Part shown: one piece after another, positions 4,541 to 21,735 of the stretch | Layout: every line of letters starts with the position of its first letter | Position numbering within the stretch: the stretch's first letter is position 1 | From: Cupriavidus necator | Lineage (GTDB): Bacteria; Pseudomonadota; Gammaproteobacteria; Burkholderiales; Burkholderiaceae | NCBI RefSeq assembly: GCF_016127575.1 | Contig: NZ_CP066018.1 | Span: 1 to 32,000, forward strand | Direction of reading: 5' to 3' | DNA length: 32,000 bases | The notes under the pieces: model-generated | What the model was told of the DNA's origin: nothing | What the model saw: the letters and a program-made list of their open reading frames with translations, nothing else | The model's database searches: none | Made by a program: the position numbers and the translations under genes

Positions 4541-5428
4541 ATGAAAATGAACCTGCGCCAGATCGAGGTGTTCCGCGCGGTCATGCTGACCGGCTCGATC
4601 AGCGGTGCGTCCAAGCTGCTGTACGTGTCGCAGCCGGCCATCAGCCGGCTGATGTCGCACACCGAGCAACGCCTCGGCCTGGAGTTATTCCGCCGCACCA
4701 AGGGGCGCCTCTACCCTACGCCGGAAGCGCGGCGCCTGCTGGGCGAGGTGAATGCGGTCTACGAAGGGATCGAGCGCGTCAACGAGATCGCCGAGGACCT
4801 CGCGGCCAACCGCACCGGCAGCCTGCGCCTCACATGCAGCCCCAACCTGGGCCAGACCGTGCTGCCGCGCGCCATCGCGAGCTTTCGCGCCGCGCACCCG
4901 GCGGTGCGCGTGGTGGTGCGAACGCAGATCCCCGGCAATATGCTGCGCGCGTTACTGTCGGGACAGGTGGACCTGGCCGTGTCGAACATGCCGCTGGTGC
5001 ACCCCAACCTGGAGGCGCGCCTGCTGGTAAAGAACGCGATCGTGGCACTGGTGCCGGTGGATCACCGGCTGGCCACGCGGACTTGGGTGCGCCCGGCCGA
5101 GCTGGTCGGAGAAGACCTGATCGGCTACGGACCGGACGTCCCGTTCGGATTGCTGGTCCGCGAGATGTTCGGCAGCGAGGGCAACCAGCCCGATATGCGG
5201 GTGCAGGTGGAGCAGGCGCACGTGGCGCGCGCGCTGGCGCAGGCCGGCGCCGGCATCGCGCTGGTCGATGCCATGACCGTGTTCGGCCAGAGCTGGCCCA
5301 ATATCGTTGCGGTGCCGATACGCACCAAGGTCAATGCCTCGGTGCAGATCTTCCATGTGCAGACCGAACCGCTGTCGCGGCTGTCGCTGGAATTCGTGGA
5401 TACGCTGACGGGGATGATGAAGGGCTAG
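4541..5428 (+). CDS. LysR-family transcriptional regulator
   Basis: Track ORF 4541..5428. The N-terminal wHTH is MNLRQIEVFRAVMLTGSISGASKLLYVSQPAISRLMSHTEQRLGLELFRR. It is divergent from the ocd-like operon. The start could instead be the second ATG at 4547. Confidence 0.93.
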   Translation: MKMNLRQIEVFRAVMLTGSISGASKLLYVSQPAISRLMSHTEQRLGLELFRRTKGRLYPTPEARRLLGEVNAVYEGIERVNEIAEDLAANRTGSLRLTCSPNLGQTVLPRAIASFRAAHPAVRVVVRTQIPGNMLRALLSGQVDLAVSNMPLVHPNLEARLLVKNAIVALVPVDHRLATRTWVRPAELVGEDLIGYGPDVPFGLLVREMFGSEGNQPDMRVQVEQAHVARALAQAGAGIALVDAMTVFGQSWPNIVAVPIRTKVNASVQIFHVQTEPLSRLSLEFVDTLTGMMKG

Positions 5429-5446
5429 TGGTTCTTTACTGAAGCC

Positions 5447-5716
5447 TCAGACCGTTGCCGCCTTGTCCAGCCAGCGCGTCAGCTGGTCCGTCACCGCCGA
5501 ACTCGAAAACGAGCAGCTATCCTGCGCGAACACTGCCGACATCTCGAGCCGGCGCAGCAGCTCTTCCATCGCCTGCCCGTAGACCGGCGGCAGCGCCAGC
5601 CCGGTACCGGCTTCGCGCCATGCGCGCACCAGGTCGCCAGCGGGCATCGATCCGGCCAGGTGCTGGTCCAGTGCGGCACGCATGCGCGCCAGTGCTTCGT
5701 TGTTGGCGGCGCTCAT
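5447..5716 (-). CDS. Hypothetical 89-aa protein, third cistron of the lutAB operon
   Basis: This is the tail of track ORF 5447..6451 (MSAANNEALARMRAALDQHL...RWLDKAATV). Its ATG (5716..5714) overlaps the lutB TGA (5715..5713) as ATGA. It is predicted helical and I recognise no family. Confidence 0.55.
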   Translation of the reverse strand: MSAANNEALARMRAALDQHLAGSMPAGDLVRAWREAGTGLALPPVYGQAMEELLRRLEMSAVFAQDSCSFSSSAVTDQLTRWLDKAATV

Positions 5717-7125
5717 AAACGTGCCCTCCTTTCCTTGTACAGTTCGCGGAACGTGCGGCCCGACGGGGCCGGCATGTCGCGGGTTTCGGTCCAGCCCTTG
5801 CCCGCCATCGGCAGGCTGGCAATCAGCTTGTTGCTGCCACCCATGCGGCCCAGCAGCCAGGCGCCGATGCGGGTGGCAAAGGCATACAGCTCCGGGCGTT
5901 TGGCGACGTAGCCCCACGCCTGCAGCGCGAAGCGCTCCTGCCATGGGCGCAGCCCGCGCTCCATCTGCTTCTCGCGCAGCTTGCGCAGCAGGTCCGACAG
6001 CGGGATCGATGCCGGGCACACGCGGTTGCACTCGCCGCACATGGTCGCCGCCTGCGGCAGGTCGATCGCATTGGCCAGGCCGACGTAGCTGGGCGTCAGC
6101 ACGCTGCCCATCGGGCCCGGATAGACCCAGCCATACGCGTGGCCGCCGATCTTCTGGTAGACCGGACAGTGGTTCATGCAGGCGCCGCAGCGGATGCAGC
6201 GCAGCATCTCCTGGAAGTCGCCGCCGATCAGCCCGGTGCGGCCGCCATCGACCAGCACGAAGTACATGTGCTCGGGGCCGTCGCGCTCGCCCTCGGCGCG
6301 CGGGCCGGTCAGCAGCGAGAAGTAGTTCGAGATGGCCTGGCCGGTGGCCGAGCGCGGCAGCAGGCGCATCACCGTGGCCAGGTCTTCCAGCGTCGGCAGC
6401 ACCTTTTCGATGCCGGTCACGGCCACGTGCACGCGCGGCATCACCGTGCACATGCCTTCGTTGCCCTCGTTGGTGACCACCGCCACCGAGCCGGTCTCGG
6501 CAATGATGAAGTTGCCGCCGGTGACGCCCATGTCAGCGCTCAGGAACTCGGGGCGCAGCACTTCGCGCGCCTCGCGCGTCATCTCCGGGATCTCGGTCAG
6601 CCGCGGCTTGTGGTGGACCCTGGCGAACAGGTCGGCGATCTCGTCCTTGTCCTTGTGCACCACCGGCGCAATGATGTGCGACGGCGGTTCCGAGTCGTTG
6701 ATCTGCAGGATGTATTCGCCCAGGTCGGTCTCGATGCTCTGCACGCCCATCTCGCCCAGCACCTGGTTCAGCCGCATTTCCTCGGTCACCATGGACTTGC
6801 TCTTGATGACCTTCTTCACGCCATGCTTCTGCGCGATCTCGGCCACCAGGCGCGCGGCATCGGCAGTGGTCTCGGCAAACAGCACCGTGGCGCCGCGCTT
6901 CGTCGCGTTCTCTTCGAAGGTGGCCAGCCAGACGTCGAGGTTTTCCAGCGCGCGGTCGCGGCGCTCTTTCAGGGCCTCGCGCGTGGCGTCGAAGTCGATA
7001 TCGCGGATCGCGTCGGCGCGGGCCGTGACGAACTTGGTCGAAAGCTTCTTCAGGTTCTGCTGCAGGCGCTGGTCGGCCAGCTTCTGGCCGGCGCGCGCCT
7101 TGAATTCCATGCTGTGGACTTGCAT
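5713..7125 (-). CDS. lutB: Lactate utilization protein B (LutB/YkgF-type iron-sulfur protein with LUD domain)
   Basis: Track ORF 5713..7911 trimmed to MQVHSMEFKARAGQKLADQRLQQNLKK (ATG at 7125), giving 470 aa. The two ferredoxin-type motifs are CIRCGACMNHCP and CGECNRVCP. The N-terminal half has an LUD-like fold. Confidence 0.88.
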   Translation of the reverse strand: MQVHSMEFKARAGQKLADQRLQQNLKKLSTKFVTARADAIRDIDFDATREALKERRDRALENLDVWLATFEENATKRGATVLFAETTADAARLVAEIAQKHGVKKVIKSKSMVTEEMRLNQVLGEMGVQSIETDLGEYILQINDSEPPSHIIAPVVHKDKDEIADLFARVHHKPRLTEIPEMTREAREVLRPEFLSADMGVTGGNFIIAETGSVAVVTNEGNEGMCTVMPRVHVAVTGIEKVLPTLEDLATVMRLLPRSATGQAISNYFSLLTGPRAEGERDGPEHMYFVLVDGGRTGLIGGDFQEMLRCIRCGACMNHCPVYQKIGGHAYGWVYPGPMGSVLTPSYVGLANAIDLPQAATMCGECNRVCPASIPLSDLLRKLREKQMERGLRPWQERFALQAWGYVAKRPELYAFATRIGAWLLGRMGGSNKLIASLPMAGKGWTETRDMPAPSGRTFRELYKERRARL

Positions 7126-16251: not shown

Positions 16252-16830
16252 ATGATCCTCACCCCGGAACAAGTTGCAGCAGCGCAAAAGGCCAACCTCG
16301 AAACGCTGTTCGGCCTGACCACCAAGGCGTTTGAAGGCGTCGAAAAGCTCGTCGAGCTGAACCTGCAGGTCGTCAAGACTTCGTTCGCAGAAGGCGTTGA
16401 CAACGCCAAGAAGGCGCTGTCGGCCAAGGACGCACAGGAACTGCTGGCCATCCAGGCCGCAGCCGTGCAGCCGGTTGCCGAAAAGACCCTGGCCTACACC
16501 CGCCACCTGTATGAAATCGCTTCGGAAACCCAGAGCGAGTTCACCAAGGTAGCCGAGGCTCAACTGGCCGAAGGCTCGAAGAACGTGCAAGCGCTGGTCG
16601 AGAACCTCGCCAAGAACGCCCCGGCCGGTTCGGAATCGACCGTGGCCATCGTGAAGTCGGCGATCTCCGCTGCCAACAACGCCTACGAGTCGGTGCAGAA
16701 GGCGACCAAGCAAGCGGTCGAAATCGCTGAAACCAACTTCCAGGCTGCGGCTACGGCTGCCACCAAGGCTGCCCAGCAAGCCAGCGCCACGGCCCGTACG
16801 GCCACGGCAAAGAAGACGACGGCTGCCTGA
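16252..16830 (+). CDS. phaP1: Phasin (PHA granule-associated protein)
   Basis: This is the C-terminal 192 aa of track ORF 16141..16830 ([39 protein letters not shown]...[14 protein letters not shown]). A GGAGA SD lies 6 nt upstream. The Ala-rich amphipathic helical phasin_2-type sequence matches my recollection of R. eutropha PhaP1. Confidence 0.95.
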
Positions 16831-17014
16831 TAACTGCCTGCGTTGAAGATGGACCGGCTGCGGCCGGTCCGTTGGCAAAGCATATCGACGCCTGGCGTTT
16901 GCGGTGTGTTTTGCCAACGATGAAGGTAGTGCCCTGACTGAGTTGCATCGGTGCTGCCTTGTCCGCCGATGTCTCCTCGGTACCGCGGTCTCCTTGTCCA
17001 AAGGTATCGTTAAA

Positions 17015-17044
17015 CCCGACCTCTACAGGTCGGGCTTTTTTTTT
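17015..17044 (+). terminator. Rho-independent terminator, first canonical one downstream of phaP1
   Basis: CCCGACCT - CTAC - AGGTCGGG followed by C and a 9-T run (17036..17044). It lies 185 nt after the phaP1 stop and may also weakly serve the convergent radical SAM gene. Confidence 0.8.
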
Positions 17045-17112
17045 GCTCTTCACCTTTCCATCAGGTTGGTCCCGGTGAACAGCGGCCGTGGGCCCCGAGC
17101 ATGCATGCCGGC

Positions 17113-18201
17113 CTATTCTCCGATGCGCACAGGAATTCGCCGCCGCCCGAACTGACGCTCAAAATTCCCGAAACGTCCCGCAATCTGTGCAAAGCAGTCC
17201 GGGCAAGTTCCCGTGGGAGTCAGGCGATAGCTTTCGATCGCGTGCCAGTCGCGCACGATGAGCTGCGCGCGGCAAGCGGGGCAATGGGTGGTGGCACCGG
17301 CGGTGTCGTGCACGTTGCCGGTGTAGACGTAATGCAGTCCCTCCGCCAGCGCGTGCTTGCGGGCGCGCGCAAGGGTGGAACATGGTGTCGGCGGCACGTC
17401 GCGCATCTTGTAGTCCGGATGGAATGCGGTGAAGTGCAGCGGCACGTCGGGACCAAGCTCCCTGGCGATCCACCGGGCCTCGGCGCGAATCTCGTCATCG
17501 CTGTCGTTCTTGCCGGGAATGAGCAGCGTCGTGATCTCGAGCCAGACATCGGTTTCGTGCTTCAGGTACTGGAGCGTCTCCAGTACCGGCTGCAGGTGCG
17601 CCCCGGTGAAGGCAACATAGAACGCGTCGCTGAAGCCTTTCAGGTCGACGTTTGCCGCATCCATCCTGGCGTAGAAATCACGCCGCGCCTCGGCGCCCAT
17701 ATATCCTGCGGTCACCGCCACCGTCCTGATGCCCAGTTGGTGGCAGGCATCGGCTACGTCCATGGCGTACTCGGCGAAGATCACCGGGTCGTTGTAGGTG
17801 AAGGCCACGCTTTTGCAACCGTGCGCCGCCGCCGATGCGGCGATCGCTTCGGGCATGGCCGCATCGGCCAGGGTCTCCATCTCGCGCGATTTACTGATAT
17901 CCCAGTTCTGGCAGAACTTGCAGGCCAGATTGCAGCCGGCTGTGCCGAACGACAGGACGGCGGAGCCCGGGTAGAAGTGGTTGAGCGGCTTCTTTTCGAT
18001 CGGGTCGATGCAGAAGCCCGACGAGCGGCCATAGGCGGTCAGCACCATCCGATCGCCGACCCGCTGGCGCACGAAGCAAGCGCCGCGCTGCTCGCCATGC
18101 AGGCGGCAGTGGCGCGGGCACAGGTCGCATTGCATGCGGCCGTCATCCAGGAAATGCCAGTAGCGGCCGGAATAGCTCCCTGAACCGGGCACATCCTTCA
18201 T
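17113..18201 (-). CDS. AmmeMemoRadiSam-system-type radical SAM enzyme (PflA-like activase fold)
   Basis: Track ORF 17113..18201, 362 aa. The radical SAM motif is CNLACKFC (CX3CX2C). The N-terminal Cys set is CDLCPRHC...GACFVR, and the block GFCIDPIEKKPLNHFYPGS is typical of this family. Confidence 0.88.
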   Translation of the reverse strand: MKDVPGSGSYSGRYWHFLDDGRMQCDLCPRHCRLHGEQRGACFVRQRVGDRMVLTAYGRSSGFCIDPIEKKPLNHFYPGSAVLSFGTAGCNLACKFCQNWDISKSREMETLADAAMPEAIAASAAAHGCKSVAFTYNDPVIFAEYAMDVADACHQLGIRTVAVTAGYMGAEARRDFYARMDAANVDLKGFSDAFYVAFTGAHLQPVLETLQYLKHETDVWLEITTLLIPGKNDSDDEIRAEARWIARELGPDVPLHFTAFHPDYKMRDVPPTPCSTLARARKHALAEGLHYVYTGNVHDTAGATTHCPACRAQLIVRDWHAIESYRLTPTGTCPDCFAQIAGRFGNFERQFGRRRIPVRIGE

Positions 18202-18392
18202 GAATGGTCCTTGTGCGGCTTGCTGATCACGGTTACCGACAATACATCCAGGTCGAAGAACGGGCTGTCAGCCGGAGGCGGGGGCAATCCGGCACCCCAT
18301 CCGGCGATGGCATGCTTGATGTACTCTGCCATCTGCTCGTCGGCAACGTCCCTGGGCTGGTCGATCATCACGACATAGCGGCGAGTGCTCAT
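18198..18392 (-). CDS. Hypothetical 64-aa protein translationally coupled to the radical SAM gene
   Basis: This is the tail of track ORF 18198..18479 (MSTRRYVVMIDQPRDVADEQMAEYIKHAIAGWGAGLPPPPADSPFFDLDVLSVTVISKPHKDHS). An AAGGA SD lies 7 nt before the ATG at 18392. Its TGA (18200..18198) overlaps the radical SAM ATG (18201..18199). About three quarters of third codon positions are G/C. Confidence 0.55.
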   Translation of the reverse strand: MSTRRYVVMIDQPRDVADEQMAEYIKHAIAGWGAGLPPPPADSPFFDLDVLSVTVISKPHKDHS

Positions 18393-18486
18393 GGCAGATC
18401 CTTTATGGCGCCCATGACAGGCAACCATGGTGGCATCACGAACGTATCCGGTGTCATCAATGCCGGCGACCCCATTCACGCGACGT

Positions 18487-18924
18487 CTAGCGATAGACCA
18501 GCACCGGAATCTTGCTGTGGGTCAGTACCTTCAGGGTTTCGCTGCCGATCAACAGCGCCTTCACACCCCGGCGCCCATGAGACGCCATGACAATCAGGTC
18601 ACAATCGTTTTCTTCTGCAGCCTTGATGATGGCATCGTAGGGATGATCGTCGACCACGCTGCTGGTGTCGCAGGGCACGCCTGCCGCGGCGGCCTCTCGC
18701 GCGATGCCGTCGAGGTATTTCGATGCGTCCTCGAGGACAGCCTCTTCGAACTGCTCTCGCGTGTCGGTGAGCATTTCGGTGTGGTAAGTCGTGACGTGGA
18801 AATCCGGGCAGGCGCGCAGCGCCGTAATGCTGGCCTGCGTCTCCTGCGCGAACTCCAGTGCCTTGCGAAAGGCCGCTTCGGCCAGAGCGGAGCCATCTAC
18901 CGCAACAAGAAGATGCCTGAACAC
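18487..18924 (-). CDS. Universal stress protein (UspA family)
   Basis: This is the C-terminal 145 aa of track ORF 18487..19188. A GTG start at 18924 lies 6 nt after AAGGAGG. The family signature is (V)FRHLLVAVDGS...DLIVMASHGRRGVKALLIGSETLKVLTHSKIPVLVYR. Confidence 0.88.
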   Translation of the reverse strand: MFRHLLVAVDGSALAEAAFRKALEFAQETQASITALRACPDFHVTTYHTEMLTDTREQFEEAVLEDASKYLDGIAREAAAAGVPCDTSSVVDDHPYDAIIKAAEENDCDLIVMASHGRRGVKALLIGSETLKVLTHSKIPVLVYR

Positions 18925-19190
18925 GTCGTGCCTCCTTGTCAGCTGAACGGTAGCCACCGGGGGCCACCGGATCCCGCCAGCAGACATCCGGCAGCGATCG
19001 GCCGCGCGCGAATATGCAGCGCCGGCCTCGGTCGCCTTGGGGTGCATGGCGGCTGAATTCAGTATAGGCAGCGAAGGTCTTGCACCGCTCCTGTCGCAAT
19101 CTGCACCTTGGCTGCCGACGCGAGCGGTACTGGCAGGCAGACCTCGCGGACGCCGGCAAATTCTGGCGGTTAATTGCATAATTGGCAATG

Positions 19191-19218
19191 AAAAAGCCCG
19201 CCTGGGCAGGCGGGCTTT
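19191..19218 (-). terminator. Rho-independent terminator of the pdh operon
   Basis: On the minus strand the sequence reads AAAGCCCGCC - TGCCCA - GGCGGGCTTT, with the last three stem bases beginning a five-T run (TTTTT). It starts 21 nt after the pdhL stop. Confidence 0.85.
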
Positions 19219-19239
19219 CTCGCTTGCAGCGAACGGCGC

Positions 19240-21024
19240 TCAGCGCTTGCGCGGCGGCGGCACGTCAGTACACGTGCCTTCATAGATCTCCGCCGCCATG
19301 CCGATCGATTCACCCAGCGTCGGGTGCGGATGGATGGTCTTGCCGATATCCACCGCATCGGCGCCCATCTCGATCGCCAGGCAGACCTCGCTGATCAGGT
19401 CGCCTGCATGCGTGCCGACGATGCCGCCGCCGATCACGCGATGGGTTTCCTCGTCGAAGATCAGCTTGGTGAAGCCTTCGTCGCGGCCGTTGGCGATGGC
19501 GCGGCCCGATGCCGCCCAGGGGAACACGCCCTTGCTGTACTTGATCCCCTTCTCCTTGCACTCGTCTTCGGTCAGGCCGGCCCAGGCCACTTCCGGATCG
19601 GTGAAGGCCACCGACGGGATCTGCTTGGCATCGAAGTAAGCCTTCTCGCCATGCGCGGCCTCAGCGGCAACGTGGGCTTCATGCACCGCCTTGTGCGCCA
19701 GCATCGGCTGGCCGACGATATCGCCGATCGCAAAGATATGCGGCACATTGGTGCGCATCTGCTTGTCGACGTTGATAAAGCCGCGCTCGCTCACGGCCAC
19801 GCCGGCCTTCTCTGCGCTGATGCGCTTGCCGTTGGGCGAGCGGCCCACCGACACCAGCACCAGGTCGTAGCGCTGTGGCTCGGCCGGCGCGGCCTCGCCT
19901 TCGAACTTGACGTAGATGCCGTCCGGTTTGGCTTCCACGCCGACGGTTTTGGTCTTCAGCATGACCTTGCCGAAGCGGTCCTTGTTCTTCTTTTCCCAGA
20001 CCTTGACCAGGTCGCGGTCAGCACCGTTCATCAGGCCGTCGAGCATTTCCACGACATCGATGTCGGCACCCAGCGTGCTGTACACCGTGGCCATTTCCAG
20101 GCCGATGATGCCGCCGCCGATGACCAGCATCTTGTTGGGCACTTCGGGCAGCTCCAGCGCGCCGGTCGAGTCGACGATGCGCGGATCTTCCGGGATGAAC
20201 GGCAGTTTCACCGCCTGGCTGCCGGCAGCGATGATGGCCTTCTCGAAGCGGATCACGGTCTTCTTGCCGGTGCTGCGCTTGCCCTCGCCTTCGGTCAGCT
20301 CGACCTCCATGTGATGCGGGTCGAGGAAGTTGCCGATGCCGCGCACCACCTGCACCTTGCGCGCCTTGGCCATGCCGGCCAGGCCGCCGGTGAGCTTGCC
20401 GACCACCTGGTTCTTGTAGTGGCGCAGGCCGTCCAGGTCGATCTTGGCTTCGCCGAACAGGATGCCGTGGGCGGCCAGCGCCTTGGCTTCGTCGATCACG
20501 GCGGCGTTGTGCAGCAGCGCCTTGGACGGGATGCAGCCCACGTTCAGGCAGACGCCGCCAAGCGTGCTGTAGCGCTCCACCAGCACGGTATTCATGCCCA
20601 GGTCTGCGGCGCGGAAGGCGGCCGAGTAGCCGCCGGGGCCGGCGCCCAGCACCAGCATCTCGCACTGGATATCGGCGCCACCGCTGTGGCTGGCGGCAGC
20701 AGGAGCCGGTGCCGGAGCCGCCGCCGCGGGTGCGGGAGCCTGCGCCGGTGCCGGAGCTTGCGCGGGCGCCGGGGCGGCCGCGGCCTGCTGGGCCTCGATG
20801 GTGCAGATCACCGCGCCCTGGCCGACCTTGTCGCCGACCTTGACCTTGACCTCAACCACCTTGCCGGCGGCCGACGACGGCACGTCCATGCTGGCCTTGT
20901 CGGATTCCAGCACGATCAGGGACTGTTCCACCTCGACCGTGTCGCCGGCCTTGACCAGCACCTCGATCACTTCCACCGCGTCGAAATCGCCGATATCCGG
21001 CACCTTGACTTCGATCACACTCAT
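19240..21024 (-). CDS. pdhL: Dihydrolipoyl dehydrogenase (E3) with an N-terminal lipoyl domain
   Basis: Track ORF 19240..21024, 594 aa. Residues 1-~78 form a lipoyl domain ([15 protein letters not shown]...[12 protein letters not shown]). An Ala/Pro linker follows, then the FAD motif [13 protein letters not shown] and the redox disulfide [13 protein letters not shown]. Confidence 0.95.
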
Positions 21025-21057: not shown

Positions 21058-21735
21058 TCAGGGCGCGCCGTCGTTGTTGGTTGCCGCGCTGTCGGGTGCC
21101 GTACTGCCGGTTGCCGGATTGCCGCCCGTGGCACCGCCAGCCGGCGGTGCCGGCGCGGTGTCACCCTCGTGCAGCCGCACGGTGTGCACCTCGATCGGCC
21201 CCGCCGAACTCTTGTCGAACTCCACGCCCGCATCGACGCCGATGCGCGCGATCTCGCCCGCATCCAGGTCCGGCCGGTCATAGACCGCATGCATCGCGCC
21301 CAGCGCGTAGTTGCGGCCCGAGCCGATACCCCAGAAGCGGTCGAACGAAAACACCTCGCGGTACGAGTAGACGCCGAAGATGCCCGCCGGATTGGCGATC
21401 AGGCATACGATCTGCGACGACTCGTAGGGATCGTCCTCGTCTTCCTTGGTGTTGACGAAGTAGTCCGACTTCAGCTTCTCATGCACCTTCAGGAAGGTGC
21501 GGAACACGTCATCACGCGAGCCCAGCCGGCACTCTTCGCCAAGCCCCGCCAGCAGCGTGCGCATGACCGGGAAGTGCGCGGTGGTCCCGGCCAGCGCGAT
21601 GAAGCCGTCGCCTACCGGGAACACCTTCTGGTTGCGCTCGTAGGCGCGCGACAGGCGCGTGTCGCCAAAGGTGACCAGCGCATCTGCCGCGATGGCCACC
21701 TCGGCGCCCTTCCTCACGACCACGCAGGTAGTCAT
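21058..21735 (-). CDS. HslV / proteasome-beta-like Ntn-hydrolase-fold protein (ORF between E2 and E3 genes)
   Basis: Track ORF 21058..21801 trimmed to MTTCVVVRKGAEVAIAADALVTFGDTRL (ATG at 21735, GGGAG SD), giving 225 aa. The N-terminal Thr-Thr, the Lys in NQKVFPV and the GIGSG motif parallel HslV (TTIVSVRRNG...KKVRRLY...AIGSGG). The Ala/Gly/Pro/Thr-rich C-terminal tail has no HslV counterpart. Confidence 0.7.
   Translation of the reverse strand: MTTCVVVRKGAEVAIAADALVTFGDTRLSRAYERNQKVFPVGDGFIALAGTTAHFPVMRTLLAGLGEECRLGSRDDVFRTFLKVHEKLKSDYFVNTKEDEDDPYESSQIVCLIANPAGIFGVYSYREVFSFDRFWGIGSGRNYALGAMHAVYDRPDLDAGEIARIGVDAGVEFDKSSAGPIEVHTVRLHEGDTAPAPPAGGATGGNPATGSTAPDSAATNNDGAP

Follow-up and report, generated by a model that had tools for sequence, protein, structure and literature searches.

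The usp, small, and amrS genes of Cupriavidus necator H16 are best explained as a lineage-specific stress operon assembled from a mobile cassette, an interpretation that we consider probable, and the junction between the small gene and amrS would then be an operon fusion rather than an enzyme-substrate pair. The three genes lie on the minus strand of the window (the whole 32-kb stretch of DNA analyzed) in the transcription order usp, 64-amino-acid open reading frame (ORF), and amrS. All three are already annotated in the GenBank record of C. necator H16 as CAJ92514, CAJ92515, and CAJ92516 (presumably H16_A1378-A1380), with usp matching that strain exactly. The features of the locus are as follows.

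19196..19211, minus strand: hairpin and T-run resembling an intrinsic terminator, after pdhL; upstream boundary of the unit
19050..19066, minus strand: promoter-like conserved 17-nt element, TATACTGAATTCAGCCG
18487..18924, minus strand: usp, 145 aa (CAJ92514; PF00582), with a GTG start and an AAGGAGG Shine-Dalgarno (SD) sequence
18393..18486, minus strand: 94-nt spacer between usp and the small ORF
18198..18392, minus strand: small ORF, 64 aa (CAJ92515, annotated as "hypothetical protein"), containing WGAGLPPPPADSPFF
18198..18201, minus strand: ATGA stop/start overlap of the small ORF TGA and the amrS ATG
17113..18201, minus strand: amrS, 362 aa (CAJ92516); TIGR04337 score of 629.9 bits against a cut-off of 220
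17015..17034, strand given as ".": GC-rich hairpin between the convergent amrS and phaP1

The sequence-only reading of this region had described a 64-aa ORF with an AAGGA SD sequence, the ATGA overlap, and a UspA gene 94 nt upstream, and these positions and motifs are all confirmed, with AAGGA standing 6 nt before the small-ORF ATG. The usp product matches PF00582 over its full length (residues 1 to 145; 122 bits, E=3e-35), and omega for usp is 0.07 to 0.11 in comparison with its closer homologues. An Rfam search of positions 16800 to 19400 returned nothing at gathering score, and the expression and fitness literature on H16_A1378-A1380 (full text and four supplement sets) yielded nothing for any of the three genes.

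The 17-nt element is the sole block conserved upstream of the cassette across differing contexts; its flanks are not conserved, and it has one match in the window versus 0 expected. With the C that precedes it, the sequence reads CTATACT, a -10-like hexamer of the sigma-S/sigma-70 type, and we infer that the element is the promoter of the unit from its conservation and its fit to the E. coli sigma-S consensus. It resembles the sigma-S (RpoS) stress promoters of usp genes in the CTATACT sequence, with its C just upstream, in having no conserved -35, and in having a USP as the first gene, but differs in that the conserved block runs about 20 nt past the hexamer. The element is ∼125 nt upstream of usp at the window-type loci (L081-L083) and ∼99 nt upstream at L098, is present in a variant form at L097 and L102, and lies ∼95 nt ahead of the small ORF itself at L090-L092 and L103, with no USP between.

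Only two terminator-like sites are found in the region, one on each flank of the unit, and no promoter or terminator is predicted in the 94-nt spacer between usp and the small gene. The hairpin at 17015..17034, a strong phaP1 terminator on the plus strand, is the sole hairpin following amrS on the minus strand, where it would form the 3' end of the usp-small-amrS unit. Transcription is thus proposed to start at the CTATACT element (about 125 nt upstream of usp), to run through the small gene and amrS, and to end at the hairpin common to phaP1. It is plausible, as was suggested from the sequence, that usp, the small gene, and amrS form one stress-type unit, given the conserved element, the flanking terminators, and the lack of an internal one. 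Through this element, the small gene (in many cases with a USP) is linked to a probable stationary-phase regulon beside phaP1, in a strain of industrial importance.

The AmmeMemoRadiSam family is widespread, and AMMECR1 and Memo have human homologues; we know of no report of established chemistry for its radical SAM enzymes. Assignment of the 362-aa protein to this family withstands profile searching, with the TIGR04337 match spanning residues 13 to 360 of 362 (full-length) and a PF04055 match at E=4e-17. The translation carries the hallmark motifs GCNLACKFC (the radical SAM CX3CX2C), an N-terminal CDLCPRHC...GACF, and DPIEKKPLNHF, the gene is 70 to 77% identical to amrS genes of amrB-amrA-amrS operons, and its omega is ∼0.13. 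The enzyme is also distantly similar in its radical SAM core to pyruvate formate-lyase activating enzyme and other glycyl-radical activases (PDB 3c8f, E=3e-8), but scores only 61 bits against TIGR02493, far under the cut-off of 232. The old annotation of CAJ92516 as a pyruvate formate-lyase activating enzyme is thus rejected, and on these profile scores its correct name is amrS, not pflA. No SPASM, twitch, RRE, or other peptide-recognition families are among the Pfam and NCBIfam matches of the enzyme, and PADLOC gave no defense-system matches, with only weak generic radical SAM similarity to viperins.

What sets the window apart from AmmeMemoRadiSam systems is that amrS is without amrA (TIGR04335) or amrB (TIGR04336) within 32 kb, as tblastn with verified AmrA and AmrB queries confirms for the AMMECR1 and Memo partners reported missing in the sequence-only reading; the three-component arrangement, with amrA and amrB adjoining amrS, is not found here. 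The same tblastn queries are negative at L081-L083, L092, L104-L106, and L110, and no adjacent amrA or amrB is present in any context seen for the clade of the window amrS (84 to 100% identity), in which the upstream neighbor is either the 64-aa gene or an unrelated gene. This clade, which includes Cupriavidus and Pseudogulbenkiania, is represented in genera from more than one order; should their genomes prove to lack the partners altogether, AmrS would be able to work alone. A search with a fused AmrB-AmrA protein as query named no Cupriavidus among the best 120 of 8000 homologues, PLSDB plasmids searched for amrA and amrB gave Ideonella and Segatella only and no Cupriavidus, and the literature (full text and paper supplements) contained nothing on AMMECR1 in Cupriavidus.

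The small ORF is a real gene under purifying selection and not a chance ORF, because it has homologues 75 to 94% identical to the 64-aa protein (15 clusters at 90% identity), a median pairwise dN/dS of 0.11 with dS reaching about 1.3, and an excess of third-position changes (883, versus 229 and 277 at positions 1 and 2). Selection is purifying in all contexts, with dN/dS equally low in those without amrS, which shows that the small protein is an independently selected product. The alignment has 37 invariant positions extending from residue 1 to residue 61, and the Pro/Gly/aromatic segment is a family motif (W.G..P.DPLF.LD) common to phage homologues; there is therefore no leader/core layout, with conservation running the whole length of the protein, and there is no Cys-rich core.

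The close family of the small protein is restricted to Cupriavidus, where there are several paralogues (profile search of 1.84 billion proteins), and distant relatives are found on two phage contigs with E-values of 5e-6 to 1e-3. The phage neighbors code for terminase, primase, helicase, ligase, and a minor head protein, and the distant members are early- or replication-region genes with neither a radical SAM gene nor a USP nearby. No match to the 64-aa protein was found in Pfam, NCBIfam, PHROG, PADLOC, or PDB sequences, with none consistent among 41 family members, nor in phage records, plasmid records, or IMG/VR. This is thus an ∼60-aa protein family without a database entry, common to phage contigs and Cupriavidus chromosomes, and under strong purifying selection.

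The small gene is present in at least six contexts, at least five of them without amrS, and four amrS contexts are without the small gene; the expectation that the two genes co-occur and stay overlapped is thus not borne out. The loci are arranged as follows.

USP-small-amrS: the window, L081-L083, and L097
USP-small with no amrS downstream: L098 and L102 (the latter away from the pdhL locus)
Element-small-57 nt-amrS-glyoxalase: L092
L092-type locus that has lost amrS by deletion but retains an intact small ORF: L090 and L091
p146-small-DUF498-SDR: L084-L086, L099, and L100
DUF498-GYD-small(-p165): L087-L089 and L093-L095
Outside all of these classes: L101 and L103

The cassette, [element]-(usp)-small-(amrS), is found without usp, without amrS, or without both, and the commonest companions of the small gene are the promoter element and often a USP, rather than amrS. 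DUF498, GYD, and two unnamed genes are its other neighbors. The four amrS genes lacking a small ORF (L104, L105, L106, and L110; two of them from Cupriavidus) are 84 to 86% identical to the window copy, and dS is 0.53 both for the window versus L092, which has the small ORF, and for the window versus L104, which does not.

Canonical amrS operons provide a comparison, using at least 80 betaproteobacterial amrS loci from reference genomes, with no Cupriavidus among the matches listed. None of these loci (0 of at least 80) has a homologue of the small ORF or of the USP, and among the matches listed 73 of 80 have amrB and amrA immediately upstream of amrS, so that the small ORF occupies the exact position of amrA. 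Among the matches listed, 55 of 71 canonical operons show an overlap of amrS with the gene before it, which measures 4 nt in 31 operons, 8 nt in 12, 1 nt in 6, and more than these in 6. Most copies of the small ORF end in TCATGA whatever lies downstream, including those without an adjoining amrS, and the amrS SD sequence (AAGGA) is formed by the conserved His-Lys-Asp codons of the small ORF. The small cistron and amrS are probably translationally coupled, with the ATG lying over the TGA and the SD sequence in the last small-ORF codons, but the ATGA overlap is not specific evidence for a partnership, because most small copies end this way anyway and amrS commonly overlaps whatever gene precedes it in the listed loci.

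The sequence-only reading had raised the idea of a mini-protein that serves the enzyme as a dedicated substrate or chaperone, or that replaces its missing partners, and this fares poorly: the small gene is selected where there is no amrS, close kin of amrS lack the small gene, and the protein has no leader/core organization. In its fullest form the proposal makes the 64-aa protein the dedicated partner of the partner-less AmrS clade, whether as a RiPP-like substrate, a scaffold, or a stand-in for AmrA/AmrB, with the paralogues served in trans. The ATGA overlap, the SD sequence inside the small ORF, its occupation of the amrA position, and retention of the adjacency in both the window and L092 types at similar dS for the two genes are all consistent with this, and predicted peptide-processing systems are reported to include radical SAM domains akin to the Memo-AMMECR1 type (PMC7159879). 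The window also resembles radical SAM RiPP maturase/precursor pairs (sactipeptide, streptide, and ranthipeptide) in that a small ORF lies directly upstream of, overlaps, and is putatively translationally coupled to a radical SAM gene with extra Cys residues. It differs from them, however, in that co-occurrence is strict in neither direction, the peptide lacks a leader/core layout, the enzyme lacks SPASM, twitch, and RRE matches, and the relatives of the small protein are phage genes with no radical SAM gene nearby. The intact small ORF beside a deleted amrS at L090 and L091, the unchanged purifying selection in contexts without amrS, and the absence of similarity to AmrA likewise argue against a partnership, which we regard as quite unlikely; that the 64-aa protein and its paralogues are a substrate or an obligatory accessory subunit of the partner-less AmrS clade in Cupriavidus, in cis and in trans, seems very unlikely. 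We infer that the small protein serves AmrS neither as a dedicated substrate nor as a dedicated subunit. Were it such a partner, it would provide the first tractable enzyme-substrate pair for the AmmeMemoRadiSam radical SAM family; a natural substrate gene beside AmrS would be of value, although comparison of the loci speaks against one here. Some observations count against the operon-fusion interpretation: the small gene and amrS have remained neighbors both with the 4-nt overlap and with the 57-nt gap, at dS values of about 0.5 to 0.7, and their adjacency therefore has some age; the small ORF takes the place that amrA has in canonical operons; and genomes with amrS-less small copies may carry amrS elsewhere, as in one 4.14-Mb contig with two small paralogues and an amrS, so action in trans is conceivable.

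A functional pair of the USP and the small protein, with the small protein binding or modulating the USP in a stationary-phase or stress module and amrS as a passenger, is an unlikely though not implausible alternative. The two genes are neighbors in the window and at L097, L098, and L102 and have diverged to a matching extent (dS of 0.53 for both genes, window versus L098), the upstream element is conserved in common, and at L093 and L094 another small paralogue is followed, 1.4 kb downstream, by a second, diverged USP. No USP is near the copies at L084-L092, L095, L101, and L103, however, the element directly precedes the small gene without a USP at L090-L092 and L103, and the phage relatives too have no USP nearby. 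There is also scant prospect that the small ORF is a mere leader cistron, supplying amrS with ribosomes but coding for a functionless product; the stop/start overlap and the SD sequence within its 3' end would fit, but omega is about 0.11 even where no gene or another gene follows, and distant homologues keep the same motifs, such that the dN/dS result has largely refuted this idea already.

Several relationships suggested for the 64-aa protein are rejected. Membership in the tautomerase superfamily (4-oxalocrotonate tautomerase-like beta-alpha-beta) has an hhalign probability of 0.1%, and the protein has no N-terminal Pro1, its N terminus being MSTRR; descent from an amrA remnant has an hhalign probability of 0.2% versus AmrA. 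P0016, a 2251-aa protein recovered at E=5e-15 in a profile search, is a repeat-rich surface protein with the short motif DVTDEQLAPYIK, and we regard this as a chance repeat match. Foldseek comparison of the small-protein model with viral models had no match below E=4. The AlphaFold2 monomer, from a 41-sequence alignment, has a mean pLDDT of 70 and a single confident helix (residues 18 to 34); the strands may form only in an oligomer. A search of metagenomes with the small-ORF alignment recovered seven loci, and tryptic peptides of the 64-aa protein include YVVMIDQPR and DVADEQMAEYIK.

Three consecutive genes on the minus strand of the window follow pdhL, namely a universal stress protein (USP) gene, a small ORF and amrS, the radical SAM gene of the AmmeMemoRadiSam family. 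They are laid out as follows.

19211-19196, minus: hairpin after pdhL, terminator-like (terminator prediction)
Between pdhL and the USP gene, minus: spacer of 315 nt
18924-18487, minus: USP gene, GTG start, AAGGAGG Shine-Dalgarno (SD) sequence (PF00582, E=3e-35)
Between the USP gene and the small ORF, minus: spacer of 94 nt
18392-18198, minus: small ORF for a 64-aa protein, AAGGA 6 nt 5' of the ATG
18201-17113, minus: amrS, 362 aa (TIGR04337)
17034-17015, 3' of amrS: GC-rich hairpin, common to the convergent phaP1

The TGA of the small ORF and the ATG of the radical SAM gene share an ATGA, and the SD of the latter (AAGGA) is supplied by the His-Lys-Asp codons close to the small ORF end; no terminators are predicted inside the USP-small ORF-amrS unit. 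The AAGGA SD, the ATGA overlap and the USP gene 94 nt upstream had all been described in the sequence-only reading and are confirmed, as is the pairing itself of a small ORF with a partner-less amrS downstream of a USP gene. All three genes are already annotated, as exact look-up matches the USP, small protein and enzyme to CAJ92514, CAJ92515 and CAJ92516 of Cupriavidus necator H16; CAJ92515 carries the label "hypothetical protein," and from the accession order beside phaP1 we presume the locus tags to be H16_A1378-A1380. The enzyme also belongs to a known family, scoring 629.9 bits against TIGR04337 (cut-off, 220), in agreement with the earlier assignment. The older annotation, "pyruvate formate-lyase activating enzyme," finds no support (61 bits, where the cut-off is 232).

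The small ORF is, on its substitution pattern, a genuine gene. Its conservation and purifying selection had been put at stake in the sequence-only reading and both are evident: fifteen 90%-identity clusters lie at 75 to 94% identity (all those with organism names are Cupriavidus and the remainder are metagenome sequences), 37 residues are invariant from residue 1 through residue 61, and among eleven distinct nucleotide copies the median pairwise dN/dS is 0.11 (dS, 0.05 to 1.3), with 229, 277, and 883 differences at codon positions 1, 2, and 3. The protein is acidic, without Cys and without a leader/core layout, and has no match in NCBIfam, Pfam, PHROGs, PADLOC or PDB sequences. An AlphaFold2 monomer has one helix at only moderate confidence (pLDDT 70), and Foldseek found nothing with this model; a test for a tautomerase-like fold was negative, and the protein is not a decayed amrA product (the AMMECR1-type partner gene; profile-profile probability, 0.2%). 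In a profile search covering 1.84 billion representatives, the Cupriavidus family forms only one 50%-identity cluster, with about 35 distant relatives of 56 to 106 aa (E=5e-6 to 1e-3). These share the motif Y.V.v.rP.dVs..eM.EYI..Av..W.Gg..P.DPlF.LD..sV.V, of which the previously noted Pro/Gly/aromatic segment is a part. Two relatives are on long contigs, both amid phage-type genes: a terminase large subunit, primase and helicase on one, and an ATP-dependent DNA ligase and minor head protein on the other.

Neither amrA nor amrB (the Memo-type partner gene) is present within the 32-kb window, as the sequence-only reading had stated. Among 80 listed betaproteobacterial amrS loci (70 to 77% identity), amrB (TIGR04336) and amrA (TIGR04335), separate or fused, are directly 5' of amrS in 73, and none of the 80 contains a small-ORF or USP homologue. 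The closest amrS relatives (84 to 86% identical) are in Cupriavidus strains, a metagenome contig, Noviherbaspirillum, Pseudogulbenkiania, and Crenobacter, and the four contexts examined (L104, L105, L106, and L110) have neither a small-ORF homologue nor amrA or amrB. The small-protein family is uncharacterised, and the amrS clade is consistently without adjacent partners in the contexts examined. Partial or partner-less arrangements also occur outside this clade: two Variovorax genomes (L078 and L080, ~5160-5980) have amrB alone before amrS, with amrA absent from the 13-kb locus, and in L035 and L056 both partners are missing upstream. On AmmeMemoRadiSam function, the literature that is accessible gives predictions only, for example a role in an RNA base modification pathway (PMC2034487) and a later remark placing related radical SAM domains in systems predicted to process peptides (PMC7159879).

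Neighbour mapping, in which DNA around different small-ORF family members was fetched and searched by tblastn, gives the following contexts.

(a) Element (a promoter-like block)-USP-small ORF-amrS, 4-nt overlap: the window, L081 to L083, L097
(b) Element-USP-small ORF, then non-amrS sequence: L098, L102
(c) Element-small ORF-57 nt-amrS-glyoxalase: L092
(d) The locus of (c), but with amrS reduced by deletion to its first codons and the glyoxalase gene in inverted orientation; the small ORF is intact: L090, L091
(e) p146-small ORF-38 nt-DUF498-SDR: L084 to L086, L099, L100
(f) DUF498-GYD-small ORF, then either a 165-aa gene 14 nt further on or nothing: L087 to L089, L093 to L095
(g) Unlike any of (a) to (f): L101, L103

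L102 lies away from the pdhL locus, and at least two small-ORF paralogues are on a single 4.14-Mb contig. The sequence-only reading had proposed that the small protein could be a substrate or partner of the orphan enzyme. Comparative genomics does not support the proposal, although such a protein could act in trans: the two genes are not tied to each other, as several contexts have the small gene without amrS and the four close amrS contexts have no small gene. Measured from the window, amrS dS is 0.53 both for L092, where the small ORF is present, and for L104, where it is absent. Nor is the ATGA overlap specific evidence for a partnership. The ending TCATGA is found in most small-ORF copies, among them ones followed by DUF498, by the 165-aa gene or by nothing, so the ATG was already there as a side effect of ending on Ser-stop (or Pro-stop). 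Of 71 loci with canonical operons, 55 have an amrS start that overlaps the stop codon before it; the overlap measures 4 nt in 31 of them, 8 nt in 12 and 1 nt in 6, and is longer in the other 6. Judged by these junctions, tight coupling to any upstream gene is a habit of the amrS family. All amrS genes of the window clade start Met-Lys, and the H16 junction may have arisen through loss of the DNA between two ATGAAG repeats.

Upstream regions of contexts (a) to (d) and L103 have almost nothing in common save the block GCCTATACTGAAYTSAGCCGNCATGCACC. Its 17-nt core, TATACTGAAYTSAGCCG, occurs once in the window (19050-19066, minus; 0 expected), and also at ~5890-5907 in L090 to L092, 353-369 in L098, and 232-248 in L103. 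It precedes the USP gene by ~125 nt in the window type and ~99 nt in L098, and directly precedes the small ORF at ~95 nt where the USP gene is absent. CTATACT, with a C before it and without a conserved -35 box, resembles the sigma-S-type -10 signature established for E. coli. The core is within a ~30-nt conserved block running ~20 nt downstream past the -10-like hexamer, a stretch that might be a 5' UTR or operator. With this element conserved and no internal terminator predicted, the suggestion that the USP gene belongs to the same stress-type transcription unit is plausible. These findings lead us to infer an ancestral [promoter]-(usp)-small-(amrS) cassette, copied and trimmed differently by lineage. 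Most likely, a mobile promoter-(USP)-small-gene cassette fused with a partner-less amrS as a lineage-specific operon, in which amrS translation in H16 would be coupled to the small cistron. Between the window and L098, dS is 0.53 for both the USP and small genes. GC3 is 0.74 to 0.80 for the USP gene, small ORF and amrS and 0.85 to 0.87 for pdhL and pdhB, which hints at an accessory origin of the three genes.

Recurrent Cupriavidus neighbours of the small ORF encode p146 (146 aa) and p165 (165 aa), neither with a match in Pfam, NCBIfam or PADLOC; the two genes are at L084 5336-5776, L087 2363-2860 and L101 1102-1542. Genes for DUF498 and GYD-domain proteins keep them company repeatedly, and all four resemble small accessory genes that have been shuffled as a set. 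The phaP1 terminator hairpin coincides with a sub-threshold match to RF02278, "Betaproteobacteria toxic sRNA" (window 16970-17043, plus; 34 bits, gathering score 50), which is probably just the terminator. In C. necator GCA_051903315.1 (L083 11409-15019), genes of 704 and 374 aa, with no Pfam match on record, are additionally present between amrS and phaP1; other strains do not have them. Within the pyruvate dehydrogenase cluster, pdhB and pdhL are separated by a gene whose 225-aa product has a Proteasome (PF00227) domain (window 21058-21735, minus; gene call in L081). Several canonical loci have a ~209-aa gene directly 3' of amrS and overlapping its stop (L018 7083-7712 and equivalents in several Nitrosomonas-type loci), weakly matching a metallo-beta-lactamase-type lactonase model, and L110 has a Lactamase_B_2 gene directly 5' of its partner-less amrS; a gene of this type may be a recurrent fourth component. 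About 100 nt 5' of amrS plus its first codons (MKEALYPGRYWHF) are alike in Cupriavidus sp. 8B and Pseudogulbenkiania sp. MAI-1, of different orders (L105 5809-6000, L106 5818-6000), which suggests either that the region was transferred horizontally not long ago or that it is a conserved leader.
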